DNA of 64,000 nt from Candidatus Saccharimonadales bacterium (GTDB lineage: Bacteria; Patescibacteriota; Saccharimonadia; Saccharimonadales; JBGSXW01), in NCBI GenBank assembly GCA_041751215.1, contig JBGSXW010000002.1, positions 157,287 to 221,286 of the forward strand. The letters run 5' to 3'. Below the pieces are notes generated by a model, which was given only the letters and a program-made list of their open reading frames with translations, ran no database searches and was not told the DNA's origin. Shown here piece by piece: positions 1,068-53,070 of this stretch (its first letter is position 1; the number at the start of each line of letters is the position of its first letter). Both the position numbers and the translations under genes were made by a program.

Positions 1068-1338
1068 TATTATCTCCTTGATTTTTCTTGGTTAGCTTGT
1101 TTAATTGGGTTCTTAAATTTGAGTTCTTAAATGAAAAATGTCGACCTTTTGGCCGACGAACTGAATGCAATTATAGCTTAGGTTCGCTGCCCACGCAAGG
1201 GGTGGTACAAATCATGAAACCGTCACACAGTTTCATTTCATACTAAAACCATCCTGGCTGGCTGCAAAAGACTCACTGCTCGAAAACGTATCATTTAGAT
1301 ATGTTTTCTCCCATTTCGTCATTTTCGCTCAACCTAGT

Positions 1339-3933
1339 ATGCTTTTATCAATGAAAGCAAACCATGAGACGGCTTCAACCCCAATGAAAAGTGTTCGCCG
1401 CTTGGCTAAAGAATATCGGCCAAAAAAGTACCAGCTCAATCTTTCGCTTTATCCTGACGAAATGAACTTTGCCGGAACCGTAAAAATCGAAGGCCATCTT
1501 GAAGACGCCAGGAGTGATATAACCCTCCACAGCAAGGACCTGAAAATTGTCTCAGTGAGCATTAACGGCAAAGACGCCAAGTTTAAACTAGATCCAGGCA
1601 ATGATCAGTTGATAGTTTTAAGCAACAAGCTGCTCAATGCTGGAAGTCAGCTGGTAGAGATAAAGTTTTCCGGAACAATCACCGATCCTATGAATGGGAT
1701 TTACCCGTGTCGTTTTAATTATCAGGGCCAGGCCCAGAAGCTGCTTGGCACTCAGTTTGAGTCACACCACGCCCGCGAAGCTTTTCCGTGTATTGATGAG
1801 CCGGCCGCTAAAGCAGTATTTGAGCTGACACTCAACACTCCTGCTGGCGAAACAGTCGTCGCCAACACTCCTATTAAGTCGCAGTCAACTAAGGACAAAC
1901 GACAAGTAACCGAGTTTGAACCCACACCAATTATGTCCAGCTACCTACTGGCATTTGTGGTTGGCAATGTTAAGTACCTAGAAGCAAAAACCAAGCGCGG
2001 AACCCTGGTTAGGACTTATGCGACCCCTGATAACTATAAGTTCACACAGTTCTCGCTAGACATGGCAGTTAAAACCCTAGAGTTCTTTGAAGATTACTTT
2101 AAGATTCCTTACCCACTAGCCAAGTGTGACTTTGTCGCACTGCCAGACTTTGCCGCCGGGGCAATGGAAAACTGGGGATGCATTACTTTCCGCGAAGCCG
2201 ATCTGTTAGTCGACCCAGAAAACACTAGCTTGCCACAAAAGGAACGAGTCGCGGTAGTAGTCGCCCACGAACTGGCTCATCAATGGTTTGGAAACTTGGT
2301 GACCATGGATTGGTGGAGTGACTTGTGGCTAAACGAAGGCTTTGCCAGCTGGATAGAATACCTCGCTGTTGACCATGAATTTCCGGAATGGAACATGTGG
2401 GCTCAGTTTGTAACAGAGGATCTTATTCGCGGCCAATCACTTGATGCCTTAGCTAATACCCACCCGGTTGAGGTTGAAATTCCCCACCCAGATGAAATCC
2501 GAAACATCTTTGATGCCATCAGCTACAGCAAGGGCGCAAGTGTTATTAGAATGCTTCATGCCTATTTAGGGCCAAAAGACTTTCAGCGCGGGCTACAAAC
2601 CTACCTTAATCGCTACAAGTACGCCAACGCCTCTACGGATGATTTATGGGCAACACTTGAAGAGGTCTCAAAGAAACCAGTTAGCGAGTTTATGTCGGCT
2701 TGGACAAAACAAGCTGGGTTTCCAGTTGTGCATGCTTCGCGCCGCAGCGATACCATAGACCTTAAACAAGAACGATTTTTCTTTAGCACTAGAGAACGCA
2801 AAAGCATGCAGGATAAAACGCTTTGGCCTGTCGCTATTAATGCAACAGACCGGGCCGATAACTTTACGCTCACCAAAGCCCACGATCGCTGGAAAATCGG
2901 TGATACTAACGCGGTTAAGTTAAACCGCGACCAAACTGGATTTTACATGGTTCGGTACGATGAATCTTGGCTTGATGAGCTGTCCGCAGGTATTAAAGCC
3001 GGTAGCCTTTCCGAAATAGATAGACTTGGTTTGTTAAGCGAAGCCTTTACGCTGGCAAAGGCCGGATATCTGCCGACGGTTTCGGCACTAAACCTGCTTG
3101 GATCTTTCACCCAAGAGTCATCCCTGCCAGTTTGGGAGATCATACTTGGTCAGCTCGGAAGCGTCCGACGTGTCATGGAAGACGATAAACTTAGAGAACT
3201 AATCAAACCTTATGTTGGTGAATTGGTTGCTAAGCAGCACGACCGTCTTGGCTGGAAAGAAAGCGACAGTGATAGTCACCAAGATAAAATTTTGCGACCA
3301 ATTATGTTAGGTCAGGCCAGTTTTGCTCAGAATCCTGATGTTGTAAAAGAATGTCTAGCGCGCTTTGACAAAATGAAGCAGCCCAGCGACGAGAACCCAG
3401 ACATTCGGCCTGTTGTTTATGGCACGGCTGCGCGCGAAGGTGACAGCAAAACCTACGACAAACTCTTTGAGTTTTATACTAAGAGCGACTCAGCACAGGA
3501 AAAGGGCATCTTAACCGGAGCACTTACTGGGTTTAAACAGCCTGAACTCGTCAAACGAGCCCTCGATACTATTAGGACTGATGAAGTTAGGCTGCAGGAT
3601 GTGCTGTATTGGACAGGCGGATTGTTTGCGAACCGACATGGCAAAAAGCAGGCCTGGGACTGGATGACAGACAATTGGGACTGGATAGAAGAAAAGTTTG
3701 GCAACGATATAATGATGATGACCGGATTCCCATTGCAAAGTGCGCGAGCGTTTACGAGTGAGGCCGACGCAAAACGATACGAAAAGTTCTTCTCAAAAGT
3801 TAACAAGGGCGGATTGGACCGACCAATCAAACAGGGTTTAGAGACAATACTCTGGCAAAGTGACTGGAAAAAGCGAGACGCGGCCGCAATTAATCAATTC
3901 TTTTCGAACTGGAAGCCTAAAGACTCTCAATAA
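1339..3933 (+). CDS. pepN: Aminopeptidase N (M1 family zinc metallopeptidase). The exact start is uncertain; alternative Met codons lie at 1351 and 1384.
   Basis: It has the GAMENWG exopeptidase motif and the HELAHQWFGNLVTMDWWSDLWLNEGFA HEXXH-(18)-E zinc site. At 864 aa it is typical of PepN. Confidence 0.9.
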   Translation: MLLSMKANHETASTPMKSVRRLAKEYRPKKYQLNLSLYPDEMNFAGTVKIEGHLEDARSDITLHSKDLKIVSVSINGKDAKFKLDPGNDQLIVLSNKLLNAGSQLVEIKFSGTITDPMNGIYPCRFNYQGQAQKLLGTQFESHHAREAFPCIDEPAAKAVFELTLNTPAGETVVANTPIKSQSTKDKRQVTEFEPTPIMSSYLLAFVVGNVKYLEAKTKRGTLVRTYATPDNYKFTQFSLDMAVKTLEFFEDYFKIPYPLAKCDFVALPDFAAGAMENWGCITFREADLLVDPENTSLPQKERVAVVVAHELAHQWFGNLVTMDWWSDLWLNEGFASWIEYLAVDHEFPEWNMWAQFVTEDLIRGQSLDALANTHPVEVEIPHPDEIRNIFDAISYSKGASVIRMLHAYLGPKDFQRGLQTYLNRYKYANASTDDLWATLEEVSKKPVSEFMSAWTKQAGFPVVHASRRSDTIDLKQERFFFSTRERKSMQDKTLWPVAINATDRADNFTLTKAHDRWKIGDTNAVKLNRDQTGFYMVRYDESWLDELSAGIKAGSLSEIDRLGLLSEAFTLAKAGYLPTVSALNLLGSFTQESSLPVWEIILGQLGSVRRVMEDDKLRELIKPYVGELVAKQHDRLGWKESDSDSHQDKILRPIMLGQASFAQNPDVVKECLARFDKMKQPSDENPDIRPVVYGTAAREGDSKTYDKLFEFYTKSDSAQEKGILTGALTGFKQPELVKRALDTIRTDEVRLQDVLYWTGGLFANRHGKKQAWDWMTDNWDWIEEKFGNDIMMMTGFPLQSARAFTSEADAKRYEKFFSKVNKGGLDRPIKQGLETILWQSDWKKRDAAAINQFFSNWKPKDSQ

Positions 3934-4255
3934 AATCAGTAACCTCTAGGTTTTTGCCAGAAACCTCTAGCGCACTGAGCACAAAATCACCGCCCCATTG
4001 GTTGGTTGCGACCCAGTGCTTGGCTGCAAACTCCATCTGGTTCAGCTTTTTGGGCGTAATGTAATCGAGCCCGCCGCCCTGCTCAGAGGTTCGACGATAC
4101 TTAACTTCTACAAAGTAGATGGTTTGCTTCTTCCTAACGATGACATCAATCTCGCAAAAACGAGTTTGCCAGTTTTTCTCAATCAGCTTAAAGCCTTGTT
4201 CCTTAAGCCAATCAGCCGCCTTAGCTTCTGCGGCATGTCCGAGTGCGGTACTCAC
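3917..4255 (-). CDS. YraN/UPF0102 family endonuclease-like protein
   Basis: It is 112 aa with the EIDVIVRK...YFVEVKYRR restriction-endonuclease-like core typical of UPF0102. Its 3' end overlaps the pepN 3' end convergently by 17 nt. Confidence 0.7.
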   Translation of the reverse strand: MSTALGHAAEAKAADWLKEQGFKLIEKNWQTRFCEIDVIVRKKQTIYFVEVKYRRTSEQGGGLDYITPKKLNQMEFAAKHWVATNQWGGDFVLSALEVSGKNLEVTDFIESL

Positions 4256-13932: not shown

Positions 13933-14202
13933 CTATGGACTGGCCTCTATTCCTTGATTAATCTTGTCTGCTAAGTCTTGAACAAATGGAACTTCATTAA
14001 AGAAAGATAGGGTCCATACTAAAATTCCGATCAACACGGTTGCGCCGATCACGGAGCCAAAGCCGATAAAAACTCCGCGCACAAAACTTAGGCCTACTAG
14101 TCTTTTGTGGCTAATAAATCCACCCTCAACAATCGGAGCCATTAGTCGGCCGATGCGCTCGTAGTCTGAAACACTTCTCGTTTTTTGGTCGTCTGTTGCC
14201 AT
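13933..14202 (-). CDS. Small hypothetical membrane protein
   Basis: It is 89 aa with one clear TM helix (GVFIGFGSVIGATVLIGILVW) and no identifiable family. Confidence 0.4.
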   Translation of the reverse strand: MATDDQKTRSVSDYERIGRLMAPIVEGGFISHKRLVGLSFVRGVFIGFGSVIGATVLIGILVWTLSFFNEVPFVQDLADKINQGIEASP

Positions 14203-14209
14203 TGAATTC

Positions 14210-14611
14210 TTACTTTCGGTTCTTTTTGTCTTTTAAGGCTTTCTCGGCCTTTTTAGCTTCACTAATAATCTCGTCGAGTTCTTCTTTGGTAAAGTCCCCG
14301 TCGCGAACAGTTGCAATCAATTCTTTAACTTTGGCTTGGGCGACTTCTGCTCGTTTTCTTAAATCGGCATAGTCCTCTTTTGCCTTACCCTTTAGGGTTT
14401 CTAGCTGTTCTTTGCTTGCTTCAAGTGCTGATTCAAGTTCTGTAAAAACTTTCTTTAGCTCGCCTTCAGCTGCCTGAGCAGCCTTTTCAGCCTTGGTCTT
14501 AATAATCTGACGCGTTTCTTTACCTGATCGTGGAGCAAACAGCAGTCCGGCGACCACCCCTACCACAGCACCAATTATTCCACCCTTTAAAATTTTGTGA
14601 TTGTCTCCCAT
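14210..14611 (-). CDS. YtxH-like (DUF948-associated) general stress protein
   Basis: It has the GGIIGAVVGVVAGLLFAPRSGKETR YtxH motif followed by a long coiled-coil. Confidence 0.65.
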   Translation of the reverse strand: MGDNHKILKGGIIGAVVGVVAGLLFAPRSGKETRQIIKTKAEKAAQAAEGELKKVFTELESALEASKEQLETLKGKAKEDYADLRKRAEVAQAKVKELIATVRDGDFTKEELDEIISEAKKAEKALKDKKNRK

Positions 14612-14628
14612 AACTACTCCTTCTTATC

Positions 14629-14883
14629 TTATTTTGACTTTTGTCTGTCGACGATCGCCTCTACGATGTTTACCACCGACCTCGTAACACTGGCCTTATT
14701 GGCAGCGTCACGCATAACTTGGCCTGCGGCCTCGACATTATCGACAATTGAAGCGGCTTTATTGGTAACTCGGTTAATGCTGCGGGCTATCTTGATCAAA
14801 ATAATGACGAGTGCTATCGCGAGCGTCAAAAAAAGAAAAAGTGATACCGACAGTATTATTACTAAAATTTCAAAAGCATCCAT
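14629..14883 (-). CDS. DUF948-like small membrane protein
   Basis: It is 84 aa with an N-terminal TM helix then an amphipathic region (INRVTNKAASIVDNVEAAGQVMRDA). The pattern resembles YtxG-type proteins. Confidence 0.5.
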   Translation of the reverse strand: MDAFEILVIILSVSLFLFLTLAIALVIILIKIARSINRVTNKAASIVDNVEAAGQVMRDAANKASVTRSVVNIVEAIVDRQKSK

Positions 14884-14904: not shown

Positions 14905-16365
14905 TTACTGCTCTAGCATCTTTCGCAAAATCTGGTTGACCATTTGCGGATTAGCCCGCCCCGAGGTTTTAGCCATAACTTGGCCAACCAAAAACCCAAT
15001 TGCCTTAGCTTCTCCGGCTTTAACGTCTGCTACTGGCTTAGGATTGTCGGCTAGAACTTGTTGGACAATAGATTCAAGCTCAGCAGAGTCGGACTGCTGG
15101 GCCAAGCCAGAGCGCTCAACTAAAGCTTTTGCGTCATGCCAATCTGTAAATGATTCAGCCAGTATGGTTTTTGCTGCAGAGGCGCTGATTGTTCCGGCTT
15201 CGACAATCCGTGATAGCTCCAGCAATTGGCCTCCAGCCTGTAGATATGAAGAAGCATCGTCAATATCAAGGTTCTTGCTTTCTTTAAAAGTTGCGATAAT
15301 GACGTTAACCAGCCAGTCGGCAATTCTTTTCAGGTGCGAGCCTTCTGCTCCGGCAATCTGTTCGGTTTGAATCTTCTGTATCAGGCCTGGGTAGTCAATG
15401 AGCACCTCGGTGGTATTTTTGCTGATTCCTGCGGCTTGAAGCTCGCTTCTTATTTCTTTAGGAAGTTTTGGCATGGTTTGTTTGGCAGCTTCAACCCTAT
15501 CGGCGTCTAAGACAACGGGTGGCAGGTCGGGCTCAGGAAAATAGCGGTAGTCGTGGGCCTCCTCTTTGCTACGCTGTGAAGTTGTCTTTTGCTTGACGTC
15601 ATCCCAGCCACGAGTTTCTTGGACAATGACCTGACCTTTGTCCAAGAGTTCGCTCTGTCGTTTAATTTCGTAGGCAACTGCTCGCTCTACGCTTTTAAAT
15701 GAGTTGAGGTTTTTGGTCTCGCTGCGCGTCCCTAGCTCTTTTTGATCTGGCTTCGCAAGAGAGACGTTTACATCGAATCTCATGTTGCCGTGGTATAAAT
15801 CTACGTCAGAAACACTGGCATACCTCATTAAGTGATAGAGTTCGCGGGCAAAGGCGCGGGCTTCCTCTGGGGTGTGCATGTCAGGCTCAGAAACAATTTC
15901 GAGTAGCGGAGTTCCCGCTCGGTTTAAGTCGACTAGTGAGTAGTCTTTTCCGTCCGGGTGAATTAGCTTACCCGCATCTTCTTCAAGGTGTGCTCGAGTA
16001 ATTCCGACATTAAAGGTTTTATCCCCCAGCGGCACTTCTACTGTTCCTTTGCCGACAATTGGCTGAGCAAACTGAGTTATCTGATAGCCTTTTGGCAAAT
16101 CTGGATAAAAATAGTTCTTTCTATCAAAACTACTTACGTGCGCGATCTCAGCATTTAAGGCAATCCCGGCTAGAATGGCTAGGTTAACTGCCTGTTCGTT
16201 TAAGACCGGCAACACCCCAGGCAGGCCAAAGCAGATTGGGCTGACGTTAGTATTGGGCTTGGCGCCACGGCTATCGGCGTTGACCGCAGCAAAGAGTTTG
16301 GTCTTGGTTTTAAGCTGAACGTGACACTCAATGCCAATGGTTGCAATGTAGTCGGCAGCCGGCAT
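14905..16365 (-). CDS. gatB: Asp-tRNA(Asn)/Glu-tRNA(Gln) amidotransferase subunit B
   Basis: It is 486 aa with the GatB/GatE catalytic region (NRAGTPLLEIVSEPD) and a C-terminal YqeY-like domain. Confidence 0.92.
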   Translation of the reverse strand: MPAADYIATIGIECHVQLKTKTKLFAAVNADSRGAKPNTNVSPICFGLPGVLPVLNEQAVNLAILAGIALNAEIAHVSSFDRKNYFYPDLPKGYQITQFAQPIVGKGTVEVPLGDKTFNVGITRAHLEEDAGKLIHPDGKDYSLVDLNRAGTPLLEIVSEPDMHTPEEARAFARELYHLMRYASVSDVDLYHGNMRFDVNVSLAKPDQKELGTRSETKNLNSFKSVERAVAYEIKRQSELLDKGQVIVQETRGWDDVKQKTTSQRSKEEAHDYRYFPEPDLPPVVLDADRVEAAKQTMPKLPKEIRSELQAAGISKNTTEVLIDYPGLIQKIQTEQIAGAEGSHLKRIADWLVNVIIATFKESKNLDIDDASSYLQAGGQLLELSRIVEAGTISASAAKTILAESFTDWHDAKALVERSGLAQQSDSAELESIVQQVLADNPKPVADVKAGEAKAIGFLVGQVMAKTSGRANPQMVNQILRKMLEQ

Positions 16366-16775
16366 TACAAGGCACCTAAATCTTTAAGTGCTTTACGAAA
16401 GCCCCGCATAGTCGCCGATGCATTGTTTCTGTTTACTTTCGCGTTTGGTTCATGCACTAGACGGTTCCGGGTTTTGTGGGCGCGCCATACACTGTCTGGG
16501 TCTCTAAAGATCCGATTGGCCTCAACCAGACGCTCTCCCATGTTTTTCCCGCGATACTTTTGCTTTTTTAGAGCCTCGTCAAGCAGGATGTCAGCCTTAA
16601 TAATTGCTTGGGGCCATAGCTCCTCGGATCTTTGGTACATGGATACAATCTCTTCCCACTGACGATTAAAGTAATCTTGGTCCAATCGACCAGTTCGTTT
16701 CGAAAAAACACTTAAAACTACAAGTAGAATCAGTGAGGCGGCAAATATTACTGCTAGGGCTATAGCTGGATTCAT
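16365..16775 (-). CDS. Hypothetical membrane-anchored protein with a HEPN-type RNxxxH motif, translationally coupled between gatA and gatB
   Basis: It is 136 aa. An N-terminal TM helix (AIALAVIFAASLILLVVLSVF) is followed by a helical domain of about 110 aa ending in AHKTRNRLVHEPN. The start overlaps the gatA stop, and the stop overlaps the gatB start by 1 nt. Confidence 0.45.
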   Translation of the reverse strand: MNPAIALAVIFAASLILLVVLSVFSKRTGRLDQDYFNRQWEEIVSMYQRSEELWPQAIIKADILLDEALKKQKYRGKNMGERLVEANRIFRDPDSVWRAHKTRNRLVHEPNAKVNRNNASATMRGFRKALKDLGAL

Positions 16776-18193
16776 GCTGATACCTTTTGGTTTATTTTAG
16801 CAGCCACTGAGAGTAATTTTTTATCAGCTTTTTGCGGCGCAATAATTTGTAAGCCAACTGGAAGTTCGCCGCTTTTGCCTGCTGGAATGCTGATCGCTGG
16901 AACACCGGCCAAGTTCACTCCCACTGTCATAATATCTATTAAGTACATCTGCAAAGGATCGCTTGTGTTAGCGCCGAGCTCAAAGGCGGGAGATGGTGCA
17001 GTCGGTCCGATTAAGAAGTCGACGCTAGAAAATACTCTCTCAAAATCTTGAACAATTTTTGTTCGGACAGACTGGGCTTTTTTGTAGTGAGCTTCATAGT
17101 AACCGCTGGACAAAACATATGTGCCGATAATAATTCGTCGCTTAACCTCAGAGTTAAATCCAGCCGAGCGAGACAGATCGTAGACTTCATCAATCGACTT
17201 TGCTTGTTCGCTAGAGAGGCCGTACCTTATGCCATCGTAGCGACTAAGGTTTGAACTCACTTCTGCGGGCATAATCACGTAGTAGGCCGCCAACGCAAGA
17301 TCGAGGGTTGGCAAGCTAACCTCTTTTATAATTCCGCCACTGGCTTTTATTTTCTCTACTGAACTCTCAATTACAGATCTAACTTCAGGACTTAAACCCT
17401 CGCCCATATGTTCTTTGATTAGTCCAAAAGTTTTTCCCTTAATATCATATTCGTCATCAAGAAACGACTTGTCGGCAACGTCTATTGTCGTCGCGTCTTT
17501 ATCGTCTTTGCCAGCTAGAATATCTAGAACAACCGCCGCGTCTTCAACAGATTTAGTCAAAGGCCCAATAACATCAGTTGAACTGGCCATTGCTACAACG
17601 CCGTAACGAGAAACCAACCCATACGTAGGCTTGTAGCCAACGACACCGCAAAAGCTGGCGGGCAAGCGAATCGATCCGCCGGTATCGGTACCGAGAGCAA
17701 AAGGTGCAATCTCTAAGGCTACTGCTGCAGCCGAGCCACCCGAAGAACCGCCTGGGACCCTTGATCGATCTACTGGGTTGAGTGTCGGGCCGAAGTCGCT
17801 GTTCTCGGTCGAAGATCCGTGGGCAAAGGCATCCAAGTTAGCCTTACCGACCATAATTGCACCAGCCGCTTCTAGCTTATCGATTGCTGTGGCATTTATC
17901 GGCGGACTGTACCCAGCCAAAATCTTGCTAGCAGCGGTAGTTTCCGTGTTCTTGGTTAAGAAGTTGTCTTTTGCAATAAAAGGGACGCCGGCGAGCTCAC
18001 CAGGATTCTTGCCTTCCTTTATCATTTCGTCAATTTGCTGTGCTCGCTCCTTGGCTTGTTCGTTAATCCTTAAGAGCGCGTTATATTCTTGATGATCGCC
18101 TGCAGCCTTAAGGGACTGTTCAACCAAAGACATTGCACTAACTTTTCCAGTTCTTACAGACTCAGCCAGTTCGGCTATTGCCGGCCACGGCAT
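16772..18193 (-). CDS. gatA: Glutamyl-tRNA(Gln) amidotransferase subunit A (amidase signature family)
   Basis: It is 473 aa with the amidase signature GGSSGGSAAAVA and the catalytic Ser-cisSer-Lys context. Confidence 0.92.
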   Translation of the reverse strand: MPWPAIAELAESVRTGKVSAMSLVEQSLKAAGDHQEYNALLRINEQAKERAQQIDEMIKEGKNPGELAGVPFIAKDNFLTKNTETTAASKILAGYSPPINATAIDKLEAAGAIMVGKANLDAFAHGSSTENSDFGPTLNPVDRSRVPGGSSGGSAAAVALEIAPFALGTDTGGSIRLPASFCGVVGYKPTYGLVSRYGVVAMASSTDVIGPLTKSVEDAAVVLDILAGKDDKDATTIDVADKSFLDDEYDIKGKTFGLIKEHMGEGLSPEVRSVIESSVEKIKASGGIIKEVSLPTLDLALAAYYVIMPAEVSSNLSRYDGIRYGLSSEQAKSIDEVYDLSRSAGFNSEVKRRIIIGTYVLSSGYYEAHYKKAQSVRTKIVQDFERVFSSVDFLIGPTAPSPAFELGANTSDPLQMYLIDIMTVGVNLAGVPAISIPAGKSGELPVGLQIIAPQKADKKLLSVAAKINQKVSA

Positions 18194-18484
18194 CTAGAGT
18201 ACTCTCCGCACTTTTATGTAGCCGTCAGCCTCGTCCGGCGCAGCACGCAACAAGTCTTCTGGAGACGCACCGTAATCACTTGCCGAATCTGGGCGGGTAA
18301 CGTTTGTTAGCCCAGTGACCTGAGCAGTAGGCTCGATGCCAGTTGTGTCGACTTTATCTAGCATTTTCACATAGTCTAAGATGCTCGCTAGCTCTGTCTG
18401 AAACTTTTCGATTTCATCGTCGCTGAGTTTAAGGTGAGCAAGTTTAGCCATCTGCCGAACTGTGTCAGCGGTTATTTTTGTCAT
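18194..18484 (-). CDS. gatC: Glutamyl-tRNA(Gln) amidotransferase subunit C
   Basis: It is 96 aa. The sequence MTKITADTVRQMAKLAHLKLSDDEIEKFQTEL is typical of GatC. It lies directly upstream of gatA. Confidence 0.85.
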   Translation of the reverse strand: MTKITADTVRQMAKLAHLKLSDDEIEKFQTELASILDYVKMLDKVDTTGIEPTAQVTGLTNVTRPDSASDYGASPEDLLRAAPDEADGYIKVRRVL

Positions 18485-20494: not shown

Positions 20495-21100
20495 TCAGGT
20501 GCTCTTCTTTGACGCAGGTTCTTTTGGGCTATATTCATCAAAATAGACATCAAGGTTCTTAGCGTTTTGAGTGTTAAGAATTGCAATCAGCCGACTTACA
20601 AGCCGCCCGGCATCGTCATCAAAGATAACTTCTGAATCCGGAGGAAGTGGAGTTGCGACTTCAAGAATGCCCTGAATCTGAGAACCAATCCCGCCGGCCC
20701 CAGTTAAAAATCCCATCGGCTTGCCCATCTCAAGCGCCACCGTAAACTCGTGCAAAGTTCCTAGGCGCCCGCCGATGCTCAAAACCGCGTCAGACGATGC
20801 AACTAACAAAGAATCTCGCCCGACATAGTTTAGGCCGGTGTAAAGAATTACATCGTAGGCCTCGGTCGGCAGGCGATACTTTTTTACATGCTCAATTTTA
20901 GTGGAAGCCGGGGAGATCCCTACTGAAGTTCCGCCCGCCTCCTTGCATCCCATGGCAGCAAAATGCGGCAAACCAACAGTTGCTCCGGTTAAAAGCATGC
21001 TTCCTGATGTTGCGATTGCGCGTCCAGCCGCTAGAGCTAAATCTTTCCCCTCACTGACGCTTTTTCCCTTGGCCGCACCGGAAACACATATCTGATACAT
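20495..21100 (-). CDS. LOG/TIGR00725-family Rossmann-fold protein
   Basis: It is 201 aa with ICVSGAAKG... LLTGATVGLP... SIGGRLGTLHEF, a PGGxGTxxE-like LOG motif. Confidence 0.6.
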   Translation of the reverse strand: MYQICVSGAAKGKSVSEGKDLALAAGRAIATSGSMLLTGATVGLPHFAAMGCKEAGGTSVGISPASTKIEHVKKYRLPTEAYDVILYTGLNYVGRDSLLVASSDAVLSIGGRLGTLHEFTVALEMGKPMGFLTGAGGIGSQIQGILEVATPLPPDSEVIFDDDAGRLVSRLIAILNTQNAKNLDVYFDEYSPKEPASKKST

Positions 21101-22341
21101 TAGTCGACCGCCAATCGTGCTGGGTTGATCAAGTCGTTATCGAGTTGTCGCAGAATTTGATCCTCTAAGGTTTTTTCGCCCATGTAACGCATAAAGACCT
21201 CGTTCCAAAGGGCTTCTTTAAAGTGATAGACATAGCGATCGTCATACCCGACTTCGTTGCTATAGCTTAAAACCACGTCCATGAAGTTAAAGGTAATAGG
21301 GCGATCATCATACATAACCCCCACGTAGTCGAGGTCTTCCCAAAACTTTAGCTCTGGATCGATCTTGCACATTAGCTCCTCGGCTTTGCGCCAATGCAAA
21401 TCTTCTGGCTGGACGTGCGGTTCAAAAACCTCTGGATGTTTTTCGTCCTTGAGCTTGCCGAAGTAACGCTGAATTACCCGCCAGTGAACTTGCTGGCCGG
21501 CCATTACTGCCGCTTCGGACGGGTCGGCAATTAGTGTGTTAACAAAAATCTTTCCAAAATCTGGCTTTACTTGCTGAGCCTTAAAGAAGGCACTGTATAA
21601 CCGGACTTCATTGTAGTAGTGGAAAGTCAGAGTAATAACCTTAGTAGCGATTCCACTCATACGGGGCTGAATCGGTGGCAAAATCAAAACCACGCCCAAC
21701 TCCTTAAGATGAGTGTTTATGTGTCGTTTCTTTTCTATGTAGTGAGCAGCAATATCTCCCCAGCGCTCTTTTGGCATCACTACGAGCTTAATCTCTCGTG
21801 TCTCAAAATCGGTTGGCTTGAGTGATTCATACTGCTCGTTAAACTTATTTAGCCAATCCTCATCCTCGGCAAAGCGCAGCGCCCCATAAATCTCGTATAG
21901 ATTCTCTCGCTTTAGCATCGAATCAACCGAACGATAATTAAGTCGCTTCATTATGTTTTGTGGTGGAATATTTTTGAGCATTTTTCGGGCCACACTATCT
22001 TTTAGCACCCAACAATCGCGGGGCATTTTTGTGGCGTTGATCGCCTTAACGGCTAGCGGAATGATTTCGTAAACGTCGTGCTCGTCTTTAGCCCCAATTT
22101 GTTTGGCCAGATGCAGATCATGCTTCATGGCTTGGTTGATTAAGGCTTTGTAGAGCTCCGGTCCGGTTGTGTCATTAGGATCAAGGCCAAGTTCTTTGGT
22201 CTTTTTATGAAACTTCTCAATGATTTCAGCTGTGAGCTTAACATCCATCCCTTTTCGACCACTGGCTTGCTCTAGTTGGTCTAGGGCGCGGGTAAAGAGC
22301 GGCTGTTTGGCTTCTAATAAGTTTGTAAGTAGTTTTGTCAT
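21100..22341 (-). CDS. Hypothetical protein (413 aa) translationally coupled to the downstream LOG-family gene
   Basis: I recognised no motif. Its TAA stop overlaps the LOG ATG by 1 nt (TAATG on the minus strand). Confidence 0.45.
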   Translation of the reverse strand: MTKLLTNLLEAKQPLFTRALDQLEQASGRKGMDVKLTAEIIEKFHKKTKELGLDPNDTTGPELYKALINQAMKHDLHLAKQIGAKDEHDVYEIIPLAVKAINATKMPRDCWVLKDSVARKMLKNIPPQNIMKRLNYRSVDSMLKRENLYEIYGALRFAEDEDWLNKFNEQYESLKPTDFETREIKLVVMPKERWGDIAAHYIEKKRHINTHLKELGVVLILPPIQPRMSGIATKVITLTFHYYNEVRLYSAFFKAQQVKPDFGKIFVNTLIADPSEAAVMAGQQVHWRVIQRYFGKLKDEKHPEVFEPHVQPEDLHWRKAEELMCKIDPELKFWEDLDYVGVMYDDRPITFNFMDVVLSYSNEVGYDDRYVYHFKEALWNEVFMRYMGEKTLEDQILRQLDNDLINPARLAVD

Positions 22342-51200: not shown

Positions 51201-52832
51201 TTACCTTTCTTTCATATTGAGTATGATAGCCTGGCCACGAGCCTCTGAACCGCTAGCATTTAACAAGTTTCTCTTACTTAAAACTCTCCTTAACGCCTCT
51301 AAGGCCAGCTCGATCGATCGATTACTGTCGTCGTACACTTTGTTCATAACTACATCCGGCGATCCGTGCACTAGTCGACTGCGTCTATTATAAAGATCTC
51401 GTATTTCTTTTGCTAATTCCTGTCGATTTCTTTCATTACTTGGCTCTATCAATAGGGACATTGCTGCCCGTATACGAAAAGAGGCTTCCTGTTTTGCGCC
51501 GAACATATTTTCCCATACAGTAATAGCATCGATGAATGCGTCGGAATGGTCCATCCTTTCAGTGGCGGCTAAAATTAGTCGCTTCATGCTAACACTTAGG
51601 TTATTTGGTGCTCGTTCAAGGCAGCCGAGCCACATAGCTATGTCTTTTGATTGATCTGGGCTTATGGTCTGCCTGGGATAACGAGTTGACGGCCACCTAT
51701 GTGGGCTCAGCGATGCGCTTCTACCCACGCAAAGAGGGTTTGGTGTGGTTGAAAACACATATCGCGGCGCAACGAACTGCTGCCCCTCGGACACAAGAAT
51801 CATTGCAAGAAGAGTTCTGTCTATACTGTTCTGGAGACTCTGTAGGTTCTTGTCTATCATGGCGTTGCGATCGTCGTCGCCGTATCGAACCGCAAACGGG
51901 TCTTTGCTGTCATTGCCTGTTGTGTTGTAGCTTTTAAGAACGCTGACCTTAGCTTGTAGCTCAATTACCACGCTGATCTCACCAACATCACCCACCAAAC
52001 CATGAAGGTCAACCTGACTGGGTCCCCTTATAGAAACACCGCCTGGTGCTGTTATAGACATAAGGCTAGGATCGAGGTCTACATTACCCAGCCCAACTAT
52101 GGTGCTCAGCTTAACCTCCTGGCCATTGGCTAAGCGTTTGACTTTCCGATAAGTAGCCTGGGCATTATTTGCATACTGCACAGCCTCGTCAATCCTACTA
52201 TTTGGTGCAATTGTAGACGAAAATATGATCGATTCTAACAGCATGCCCAGCGATACGGTGTTAAATAGTCCGTTGGATAGAATGATATTAGTGGAGACCG
52301 ACAGAAGCGAAGCTGGTTGGGATTTATAATACTTATAAGACTGCACGCCAGGAAACAGTTTACGTATAGGATTAGATGCCTTCGTTATTGCCAGACTGAA
52401 CTGTTTATTAAGGGGATGTCCATAGATTAACCCGAAAGATGATGCGTGCGTTCCGTCTCGGCCTTTCTTTACTAGACAGACCGGATACACGTCCCTAGCG
52501 ACAGCCATCAAGCTCTGTTCAGCGCTGTCTTTGACATCTTCAAAACCAGGAACGGAGGCGCCAAGACATCGGTAATGAAAGTAAGTAGCCCAAGAAGTGT
52601 TCAGTTCATCCCTGTAAGAGCACAATACGTGGCCTGTGTTCATCTGTAGGTCAATCCCTTCCTTTCCTCCTAGACTTTTCACCAAAGGCGCTAGCTTAGA
52701 TAGCGCGTCACTCTGTAGAGCGTTTGGGATAAGCCGATCCAATTCCTTTGTATTTACGGCGAGCATGAATGAGAGTAGCTCAACACCGAGGATCTCCTTG
52801 AGCTGCTTGATTAAATCTGTCGTGTTTTGCAC
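51201..52832 (-). CDS. Hypothetical 543-aa protein with a C-terminal HEPN-like helical domain (R-x4-H-G). It is a candidate abortive-infection or RNase effector.
   Basis: It has the C-terminal region ...RLILAATERMDHSDAFIDAITVWENMFGAKQEASFRIRAAMSLLIEPSNERNRQELAKEIRDLYNRRSRLVHGSPD... It sits immediately 3' of tRNA-Gln and has lower GC than its neighbours, about 41-48% in the stretches I sampled. It has no TM helices. Confidence 0.5.
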   Translation of the reverse strand: MQNTTDLIKQLKEILGVELLSFMLAVNTKELDRLIPNALQSDALSKLAPLVKSLGGKEGIDLQMNTGHVLCSYRDELNTSWATYFHYRCLGASVPGFEDVKDSAEQSLMAVARDVYPVCLVKKGRDGTHASSFGLIYGHPLNKQFSLAITKASNPIRKLFPGVQSYKYYKSQPASLLSVSTNIILSNGLFNTVSLGMLLESIIFSSTIAPNSRIDEAVQYANNAQATYRKVKRLANGQEVKLSTIVGLGNVDLDPSLMSITAPGGVSIRGPSQVDLHGLVGDVGEISVVIELQAKVSVLKSYNTTGNDSKDPFAVRYGDDDRNAMIDKNLQSLQNSIDRTLLAMILVSEGQQFVAPRYVFSTTPNPLCVGRSASLSPHRWPSTRYPRQTISPDQSKDIAMWLGCLERAPNNLSVSMKRLILAATERMDHSDAFIDAITVWENMFGAKQEASFRIRAAMSLLIEPSNERNRQELAKEIRDLYNRRSRLVHGSPDVVMNKVYDDSNRSIELALEALRRVLSKRNLLNASGSEARGQAIILNMKER

Positions 52833-52955: not shown

Positions 52956-52997
52956 AAAACATGGGTCTGAAATCCACAATGTGGATGCCAGACCCAT
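52956..52997 (-). terminator. Long, near-perfect hairpin immediately 3' of tRNA-Gln, followed by a T-run on the minus strand
   Basis: It is catgggtctg aa atccaca a tgtggat gc cagacccatg. Uninterrupted 10-bp outer and 7-bp inner stems are separated by a 2-nt internal loop, with a 1-nt apical loop. On the minus strand it is followed by TTTTGTTGG. Confidence 0.55.
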
Positions 52998-53070
52998 GGC
53001 TGGGGCGGAGGGATTCGAACCCCCGATCCTGGGACCAGAACCCAGTGCCTTACCGCTTGGCCACGCCCCA
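52997..53070 (-). tRNA. tRNA-Gln (anticodon CUG) with encoded CCA
   Basis: I folded the cloverleaf by hand. The acceptor is UGGGGCG/CGCCCCA and the D-arm GCCAAGCGGUAAGGC is identical to E. coli tRNA-Gln. The anticodon stem CUGGG/CCCAG carries the loop UUCUGGU. The T-arm is GGGGG-UUCGAAU-CCCUC, the discriminator is G, then CCA. Confidence 0.85.

Follow-up and report, generated by a model that had tools for sequence, protein, structure and literature searches.

A stretch of 64,000 nucleotides (nt) from a Candidatus Saccharimonadales bacterium (Patescibacteriota; GenBank assembly GCA_041751215.1, contig JBGSXW010000002.1, positions 157,287 to 221,286), here termed the window, contains a small gene between the tRNA-dependent amidotransferase genes gatA and gatB. 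This gene, termed X, is a 136 amino acid (aa) open reading frame (ORF) at positions 16365–16775 of the minus strand. X belongs to the vertically inherited core proteins of Saccharibacteria and of related lineages of the Candidate Phyla Radiation (CPR/Patescibacteria), and is predicted to be a single-pass membrane protein with a cytoplasmic HEPN-fold domain. The interpretation we favour, to which we give about an even chance, is that X is a housekeeping, RNA-directed HEPN module that is anchored in the membrane, tied to GatB and binds translation-related RNA; the forms that carry the HEPN catalytic motif would probably cleave this RNA. The findings suggest that X is not a toxin but a partner of the translation machinery that has not been described.

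Gene X is conserved and coupled to gatA and gatB

X is present in a single copy within the window and overlaps both of its neighbours. gatA (16772–18193, minus strand; Pfam Amidase, E = 2.3e-139) is directly upstream and gatB (14905–16365, minus; Pfam GatB_N, E = 9e-116, and GatB_Yqey) is directly downstream. The first gene of the block is gatC (18194–18484, minus; Pfam GatC, E = 7e-22). As read off the window sequence, the ATG of X (16775–16773) overlaps the TGA of gatA (16774–16772) to form an ATGA overlap at 16772–16775. At the other end, the final A of the X stop codon TAA (16367–16365) is the first A of the gatB ATG (16365–16363), which gives a TAATG junction (within 16363–16385, minus).

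These overlaps recur among relatives. Among 107 related loci, gatA and X overlap by 4 nt in 65, and in about 97 the distance between them does not exceed 11 nt; from X to gatB the gap is −4, −1 or between 0 and 2 nt in 70 of 106 loci. Gene boundaries thus show, at the sequence level, that X is translationally coupled to gatA and gatB. In the Saccharibacteria loci from GTDB that have enough flanking sequence, gatA is directly upstream of X in 77/77 and gatB directly downstream in 76/76. An intervening ORF conserved in the gatCAB operons of related genomes, for which the first-pass annotation of this DNA had proposed to look, is therefore present. The wider gene order is uvrB–gatC–gatA–X–gatB–(p84)–YtxH–(DUF5665)–dnaE, where parentheses denote genes that are not always found.

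A word-indexed search yielded 345 close relatives of X with lengths of 132–145 aa, those with names being from Saccharibacteria. An exhaustive profile search yielded 2,893 clusters at 50% identity, 1,644 of them at E ≤ 1e-10, and nearly all of the 150 cluster relatives listed are 130–150 aa long. Scan patterns for X matched 415 GTDB species genomes. Residues invariant in the Saccharibacteria alignment include W40, D62, D66, E67, K70, G76, R82, W97, H100, K101, R103, N104 and the C-terminal L-x-D-L-G-A; H108 is conserved in at least 90%. X had been taken for a real gene from the window sequence alone, and conservation across the 345 relatives and 2,893 clusters rules out a spurious ORF in a spacer. 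X is real, conserved, syntenic and coupled to its neighbours.

A Shine-Dalgarno-like AGGTG for gatB is found 7 nt before the gatB ATG and sits inside the C-terminal codons of X (16363–16385, minus). These codons, AAA GAT TTA GGT GCC TTG TAA, specify the conserved K-D-L-G-A-L. The gatB ribosome-binding site and the conservation of the X C-terminal peptide may constrain each other. On the opposite strand, a 113 aa ORF (16321–16662, plus) lies almost wholly inside X; it is probably a shadow of the conserved gene on the minus strand.

The soluble domain of X very probably has a HEPN fold

The soluble domain of X, residues 30–136 (16368–16688, minus), very probably belongs to the HEPN fold. Full-length X modelled by AlphaFold2 with the family alignment has a pLDDT of 93.9 and shows a helix at residues 3–25 followed by a helical domain. 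Residues 30–136 modelled alone have a pLDDT of 97.5 and a pTM of 0.90; the core helices are 33–49, 51–71, 93–108 and 116–133, and a short inserted helix is at 79–85. When the domain model was compared with the PDB by Foldseek, ranks 1–21 were all HEPN proteins (probability 0.66–1.00, TMq 0.53–0.65, E never below 0.085). These include the HEPN-MNT toxins 8xeh, 7ae6, 8xdj, 8yuf and 7ae2, the HepT proteins 7bxo, 6m6w and 5yep, as well as 1wty, 1wwp, AF0298 (2hsb), HepS (9oij) and 4nqf. The full-length model gives the same picture. A HEPN fold had been proposed from the motif, and structure prediction agrees with it. Of viral structures (BFVD), one unnamed protein is a good match (A0A482IIS2, TMq 0.74), and there was nothing interpretable.

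The published definition of HEPN domains includes a polar residue after the R of the motif, a conserved acidic residue in helix 2, often in the form Ex3[KR], and an insert that separates helix 2 from helix 3 (Anantharaman et al., 2013; PMC3710099). The helical topology of the X domain model agrees with this description. The segment from R103 to H108 closes helix 93–108, with N104 as the polar residue after R. D62 in helix 2 is conserved at 97% or more in every class of the family, and the Saccharibacteria alignment has an invariant D66-x3-K70. Segment 72–92, which holds the short helix 79–85, is the insert.

Sequence profiles give weaker matches. The best Pfam match of the window protein is HepT-like (E = 0.064, 13.4 bits vs. 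a cutoff of 23.5), and NCBIfam yields only a spurious match of 23 residues to a c-di-GMP motif. Subthreshold matches among 58 diverse family members are to Pfam Hypoth_Ymh (5), HEPN_Swt1 (3), HEPN_Cthe2314 (2), DUF4145 (1) and HepT (1), and to NCBIfam Csm6 (3) and HepT_toxin (2).

The RNxxxH motif

The putative catalytic Rx4H motif of X, R103-N104-R-L-V-H108 (16452–16469, minus), is at the C-terminal end of core helix 3, i.e. the canonical HEPN position. It is contained in the segment HKTRNRLVHEPN. In shuffles of X, RNxxxH is found in 1.3%, in keeping with an earlier estimate of about 1%, and the generic Rx4–6H in 47%. With these chance rates the motif in a single sequence is weak evidence, and only its conservation can carry the argument. 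In 338 of 378 full-length relatives, conservation is 100% for each of R103, N104 and H108, and K63 and E109 are 95–96% conserved in these 338 motif-intact members.

W97 and H100 are 100% conserved in motif-intact and motif-less members alike, and no part of helix 3 other than W97-x-x-H100 (16476–16487, minus) is invariant throughout the family. Helical periodicity suggests that H100, R103, N104, H108, D62 and K63 are clustered in space. AF0298-type and AbiV-type HEPN domains have a second conserved His that is N-terminal to the motif (Anantharaman et al., 2013), and H100 of X is likewise a second strongly conserved His in this position. AF0298 (2hsb, TMq 0.63) is among the best fold matches. 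However, the AF0298 and AbiV families typically lack the motif His, whereas most X members have both, and there is no detectable sequence similarity. The second residue after the motif His is not a Tyr (H108-E109-P110).

Membrane anchor and topology

The single N-terminal membrane anchor that had been noted in X is also seen here. The predicted transmembrane helix is at residues 3–25 (16701–16769, minus), based on the AlphaFold2 helix and hydrophobicity. A 19-mer near the N-terminus with a Kyte-Doolittle hydrophobicity above 1.6 is found in 98.7% of the family. The approximately four residues ahead of the helix have a mean K+R count of 0.11, and the next 15 residues after it a mean of 4.8; 99.5% of family members obey the positive-inside rule. 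This bias points to an N-out/C-in orientation with the HEPN domain in the cytoplasm and a negligible extracytoplasmic part of about 2–4 residues.

The same layout, in which one membrane helix is joined to a HEPN domain in the cytoplasm, is found in DUF4145 (PF13643) and other membrane-associated bacterial HEPN groups, for which an action on RNA at the inner membrane face is predicted (Anantharaman et al., 2013). One of the 58 diverse X family members matches PF13643 (E = 7.5e-4), but the window protein does not. Unlike DUF4145-type membrane HEPN proteins, X has no conserved WP signature in its membrane helix. A gatCAB or gatB context is not reported for the membrane HEPN groups, and the word 'amidotransferase' is absent from that paper.

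Motif-less and soluble forms

R103 or H108 has been lost in 33 of 378 full-length members. K63, A99, R103, N104, H108 and E109 are lost together, and joint loss is the behaviour expected of one functional site. Residues W40, A57, A61, D62, L64, L69, G80, W97, H100, L130, D132 and G134 are kept in both groups. A rough neighbour-joining tree with Fitch reconstruction has a motif-intact ancestor, at least nine changes and one large motif-less clade. Motif-less members are still located between gatA and gatB.

Loss of the membrane helix was seen in 59 motif-less forms vs. 7 probable fragments among motif-intact forms. An example of a soluble form is in locus L174 (5001–5345; also in L175), where X is 114–118 aa in length, has no helix, displays AHNLAKK at the motif position and precedes gatB. 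The start ATG of the 114 aa L174 protein overlaps the gatA stop (ATGA), and an in-frame stop codon directly upstream of this ATG rules out a gene-calling artefact for the helix-less forms of 114 aa.

Three properties of the family may be read from these sequence patterns. The Rx4H site probably represents a true, selected activity in most lineages, including that of the window. The anchor appears to be functionally tied to this activity, perhaps to position or restrain it, because helix loss is almost confined to motif-less forms. A second, non-catalytic role, independent of motif and anchor, would keep X beside gatB; it must be assumed because a large subclade keeps the gene after loss of catalytic residues and anchor alike. 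H100 is still present in the motif-less clade, which has gained K104/K105. Motif-less X need not be inactive, as this combination may recall the alternative His-plus-basic site of AF0298 and AbiV HEPN domains (Anantharaman et al., 2013).

gatB is the constant neighbour

Two divergent subfamilies retain the order gatC–gatA–X–gatB, and in one of these (P0396) the outer neighbours are clearly different. A second arrangement was found by a scan seeded with distant members: bPH-like protein–X–[CoaE]–gatB, with no adjacent gatA or gatC (locus L090, 5438–8449, and many of the loci L091–L135). Relatives with names that have this arrangement are Peregrinibacteria or Gracilibacteria. In this distant-member set, 52 of 58 loci have gatB within 1 kb downstream; the upstream neighbour of X is bPH-like in 46 of 66 loci and gatA in 18. 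The bPH-like protein is conserved and has two membrane helices and a weak match to bPH_2 (E = 0.005). In Peregrinibacteria, CoaE (dephospho-CoA kinase) often separates X from gatB, with overlapping stop and start codons. Accordingly, the constant partner across two CPR classes is gatB and not the whole of gatCAB. The bPH-like gene was rejected as a universal partner, as the window has none and L173 has an unrelated gene upstream of X.

There are exceptions to the gatB linkage. X precedes the rRNA methyltransferase RlmH in L086 and L099 (L099, 1941–2405) and peptidyl-tRNA hydrolase (Pth) in L152 (5447–5995) and L164 (5393–5965). In L173 it precedes SecA (1114–3939) and follows a methyltransferase-like gene, as judged by eye from the sequence, and in L122, L138 and L144 it follows PurD. 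The downstream neighbours other than gatB (Pth twice, RlmH, SecA) are mostly translation-related.

An apparent orthologue in Southlakia epibionticum

A transposon sequencing (Tn-seq) study of the cultured Southlakia epibionticum lists in its supplement the protein SEML1_0535 (139 aa, 510480–510899), which is encoded between GatA and GatB (Wang et al., 2023; PMC10633639). The gene has the same 4-nt and 1-nt overlaps as X. SEML1_0535 is flagged there as belonging to a core and Patescibacteria-enriched family. Its Tn-seq calls are GD/GD/ES, and normalised reads fall from 126.6 to 5.9 and then 2.8, with only 8 insertions in the input. Genes downstream of gatB are non-essential by the same method (Wang et al., 2023).

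[quoted passage not shown] The ProtNLM label is 'DUF4145 domain-containing protein', and there is no Pfam hit (Wang et al., 2023). The e1wtyA1 group is here equated with the HEPN fold because 1wty itself is among the HEPN matches of X. Thus a published pipeline independently gives the apparent orthologue the fold that had been proposed for X. SEML1_0535 is not mentioned in the main text of that paper.

Proposed function and alternatives

In the favoured reading, the short N-terminal helix would anchor X in the cytoplasmic membrane with the C-terminus inside, and the minimal HEPN domain would carry a complete R-N-x3-H site. X would share its transcript with GatA and GatB, and its translation is coupled to that of both. 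Two HEPN domains may pair at the inner membrane face, and the pair would bind an RNA related to translation, with tRNA as the most plausible one. In most members, namely those that have the motif, among them the window protein, the pair would probably cleave that RNA in a metal-independent manner, by analogy with other HEPN RNases. X may resemble the KEN domains of Ire1 and RNase L as well as C6orf70, which are eukaryotic membrane-tethered HEPN RNases, in that a single helix would hold it at the membrane and its substrate would be cytoplasmic RNA. However, these proteins are far larger, Ire1 and RNase L are kinase-regulated, and none has homology to X beyond the superfamily; unlike Ire1-type HEPN RNases, X has no sensor domain. 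X would also have a second, catalysis-free role, e.g. binding or scaffolding next to GatB. As an accessory factor of translation, it would have a function tied to GatB, perhaps by a physical or functional partnership.

Several observations weigh against this reading. About 9% of the sampled full-length members lack R103 or H108. The motif-less clade has at least 1,176 proteins (E ≤ 1e-10 to P0130), in which AHNLAKK replaces AHKLRNxxxH, and 57 of 103 sampled proteins of the clade are also without the membrane helix. The conserved core function can do without both the Rx4H site and the membrane. In tiny genomes, genes may share an operon through compaction and not through a common function, and many genes in these genomes are translation-related anyway. 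SEML1_0535 is an apparent orthologue, so named by position, size and fold annotation only, and its depletion in Tn-seq may be a polar effect on gatB. Concerning the fold, no Foldseek match in the PDB has an E-value below 1e-3, the TM-scores are moderate and four-helix bundles can converge. No Pfam or NCBIfam profile reached its curated HEPN threshold with the window protein or the 58 diverse members, and no significant match in PDB sequences was obtained, whether the query was the protein by itself, the full-length profile or the profile of the domain.

The retention of X after catalytic loss raises the question of whether X is purely an adaptor. X would then be a lineage-specific extra amidotransferase subunit or chaperone that contacts GatB and ancestrally tethered it to the membrane, with the HEPN fold as a mere protein- or nucleotide-binding scaffold. 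This is possible but somewhat unlikely. X stays between gatA and gatB, with the ATGA overlap kept, after loss of R103, N104 and H108 and even of the helix, and the residues conserved in all members, W40, D62, L64, L69, G80, W97, H100, L130, D132 and G134, exclude those of Rx4H. Translational coupling favours stoichiometric co-production, and motif-less HEPN domains are known as substrate-binding modules (Anantharaman et al., 2013). On the other hand, complete conservation of R103, N104 and H108 in the 338 motif-intact members, together with near-complete conservation of K63 and E109, goes far beyond the needs of a scaffold. The reconstructed ancestor, although from a rough tree, is motif-intact. 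Moreover, the motif-less clade, with H100 kept and K104/K105 gained, resembles the alternative AF0298/AbiV site and may not be inert.

A more specific proposal, and an unlikely one, is that X is a fourth, CPR-specific component of the amidotransferase, a HEPN-fold tRNA-binding module that docks on GatB. The ancestral anchored form would cleave tRNA, e.g. mischarged or surplus tRNA-Gln or tRNA-Asn, and the motif-less soluble forms would be limited to binding. GatF is an extra subunit of the fungal mitochondrial amidotransferase GatFAB, where it replaces GatC; it has no HEPN fold. It is a precedent for a lineage-specific small protein that joins GatA and GatB, but unlike the fungal case, GatC is present here. 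Conserved genomic coupling with the subunit genes, a property by which an additional GatCAB subunit may be recognised, is found for X. Were this proposal true, aminoacyl-tRNA quality control would be coupled to the membrane in bacteria without GlnRS and AsnRS.

Alternatively, X may be a general housekeeping membrane-bound endoribonuclease, with a layout like that of RNase Y or Ire1, which hitch-hikes in a compact operon and has no specificity for GatCAB. The N-terminal anchor and cytoplasmic HEPN domain with an intact site fit such an enzyme, and RNA processing at the inner membrane face has been predicted for HEPN proteins associated with bacterial membranes (Anantharaman et al., 2013). Some family members adjoin SecA, PurD, RlmH or Pth and not gatB, and other small membrane proteins (p84, YtxH, DUF5665) are present in the same block. 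Against this, gatB follows X at no more than 1 kb in 135 of the 142 loci whose flanks are long enough. This linkage extends across two CPR classes that differ in the upstream gene and wider neighbourhood, with CoaE sometimes in between. The tight start/stop overlaps with gatA and gatB are conserved, and the gene is kept in place after loss of motif and anchor. A general RNase is decidedly improbable, and the GatB-linked HEPN module is preferred.

It is very improbable that X is not a HEPN protein at all, but a generic helical bundle, e.g. LemA-like or of an assembly-factor family, in which the R...H pattern is a lineage-specific coincidence. Such a view can draw on the unreached curated thresholds, the Foldseek E-values of 0.085 or above and the 47% of shuffles that have Rx4–6H. 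Nevertheless, the 21 best structural matches are all HEPN, with no LemA or other family among them, and no LemA-like or assembly-factor match was found in Pfam or Foldseek. The motif is exactly at the end of helix 3, with the polar residue after R, the helix-2 acidic residue and the insert between helices 2 and 3 all in place. The DPAM assignment of the apparent Southlakia orthologue is independent, and the weak profile matches recur on seven different HEPN families.

HepT/HEPN-MNT toxins (type II or type VII toxin-antitoxin; PF01934; 5yep, 7bxo, 7ae6, 8xeh), which are the best structural matches of X, are similar in size to it (about 110–140 aa), have Rx4H at the same place in the bundle and give weak profile matches. 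X differs from them in several ways. It has no MNT partner, its neighbours being gatA and gatB or bPH-like, CoaE and gatB. It has no Tyr after the motif His and hence no AMPylation site; E109 is instead 96% conserved. In addition, it has an N-terminal membrane anchor and is a core syntenic housekeeping gene, not a sporadic mobile module. The first-pass annotation had considered a toxin-like gene domesticated into an essential operon, and had seen no MNT-type partner in the window. The latter holds in the related loci too, but a domesticated or active toxin or defence module (HepT-like toxin-antitoxin, abortive infection or anticodon nuclease) is scarcely credible in spite of the HepT/HEPN structural matches and the HepT-like Pfam match, since about 170 loci have no MNT or other antitoxin neighbour, PADLOC gave no match (0 families at E up to 10), the tyrosine of HxY is absent (H108-E-P), X has only one copy in the window, is universal and syntenic rather than sporadic and is inherited vertically, and the apparent Southlakia orthologue is flagged core and is depleted rather than tolerated in Tn-seq.

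Other features of the window

Three small predicted membrane proteins are encoded between gatB and dnaE (13933–14883, minus): an 84 aa protein without a Pfam match, p84 (14629–14883), a YtxH-like protein (14210–14611) and a DUF5665 protein (13933–14202), all on the minus strand. This run is found again in most Saccharibacteria loci. Together with X, these make four small membrane-anchored proteins in one conserved uvrB, gatCAB, dnaE block. Just upstream of uvrB are a SLOG cluster-4 (LDcluster4) protein (20495–21100, minus) and a 413 aa protein without a Pfam match (21100–22341, minus). A SLOG gene is at the equivalent position in the related loci L001, L002 and L005.

The core hexamer of the X motif had been reported as common to X and a 543 aa protein of the window (51201–52832, minus). 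The literal resemblance stands (RNRLVH in X vs. RSRLVH), but kinship does not: BLASTP gives E = 0.5 over 15 residues, and the shared hexamer is attributed to chance. No Pfam family matches the 543 aa protein, even with E-values of up to 5 allowed. It adjoins tRNA-Gln(CTG) (52997–53070, minus), the only tRNA gene in the window.

Significance

Both the HEPN superfamily and its membrane-associated members in bacteria are known from earlier work. A HEPN family that is core, embedded in an operon and linked to gatB, and that shows a graded series of losses, has not been described previously; literature on HEPN and Patescibacteria and on Saccharibacteria and gatB yielded no description of the X family.

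To our knowledge, HEPN domains in bacteria are known almost only from conflict systems, i.e. toxin-antitoxin, abortive infection and CRISPR accessories. The X family is unlike these. It is a vertical core gene of a huge uncultivated radiation, it is translationally coupled into an essential tRNA-amidation operon, and its apparent orthologue is depleted in the only Saccharibacteria Tn-seq dataset. The natural variants, from anchored with motif, to anchored without motif, to soluble without motif, constitute a ready-made experimental design, and Southlakia epibionticum is genetically tractable. If X does act with GatB, it would be a new component of a textbook enzyme, and a function would be provided for one of the 'dark matter' families that define the CPR.

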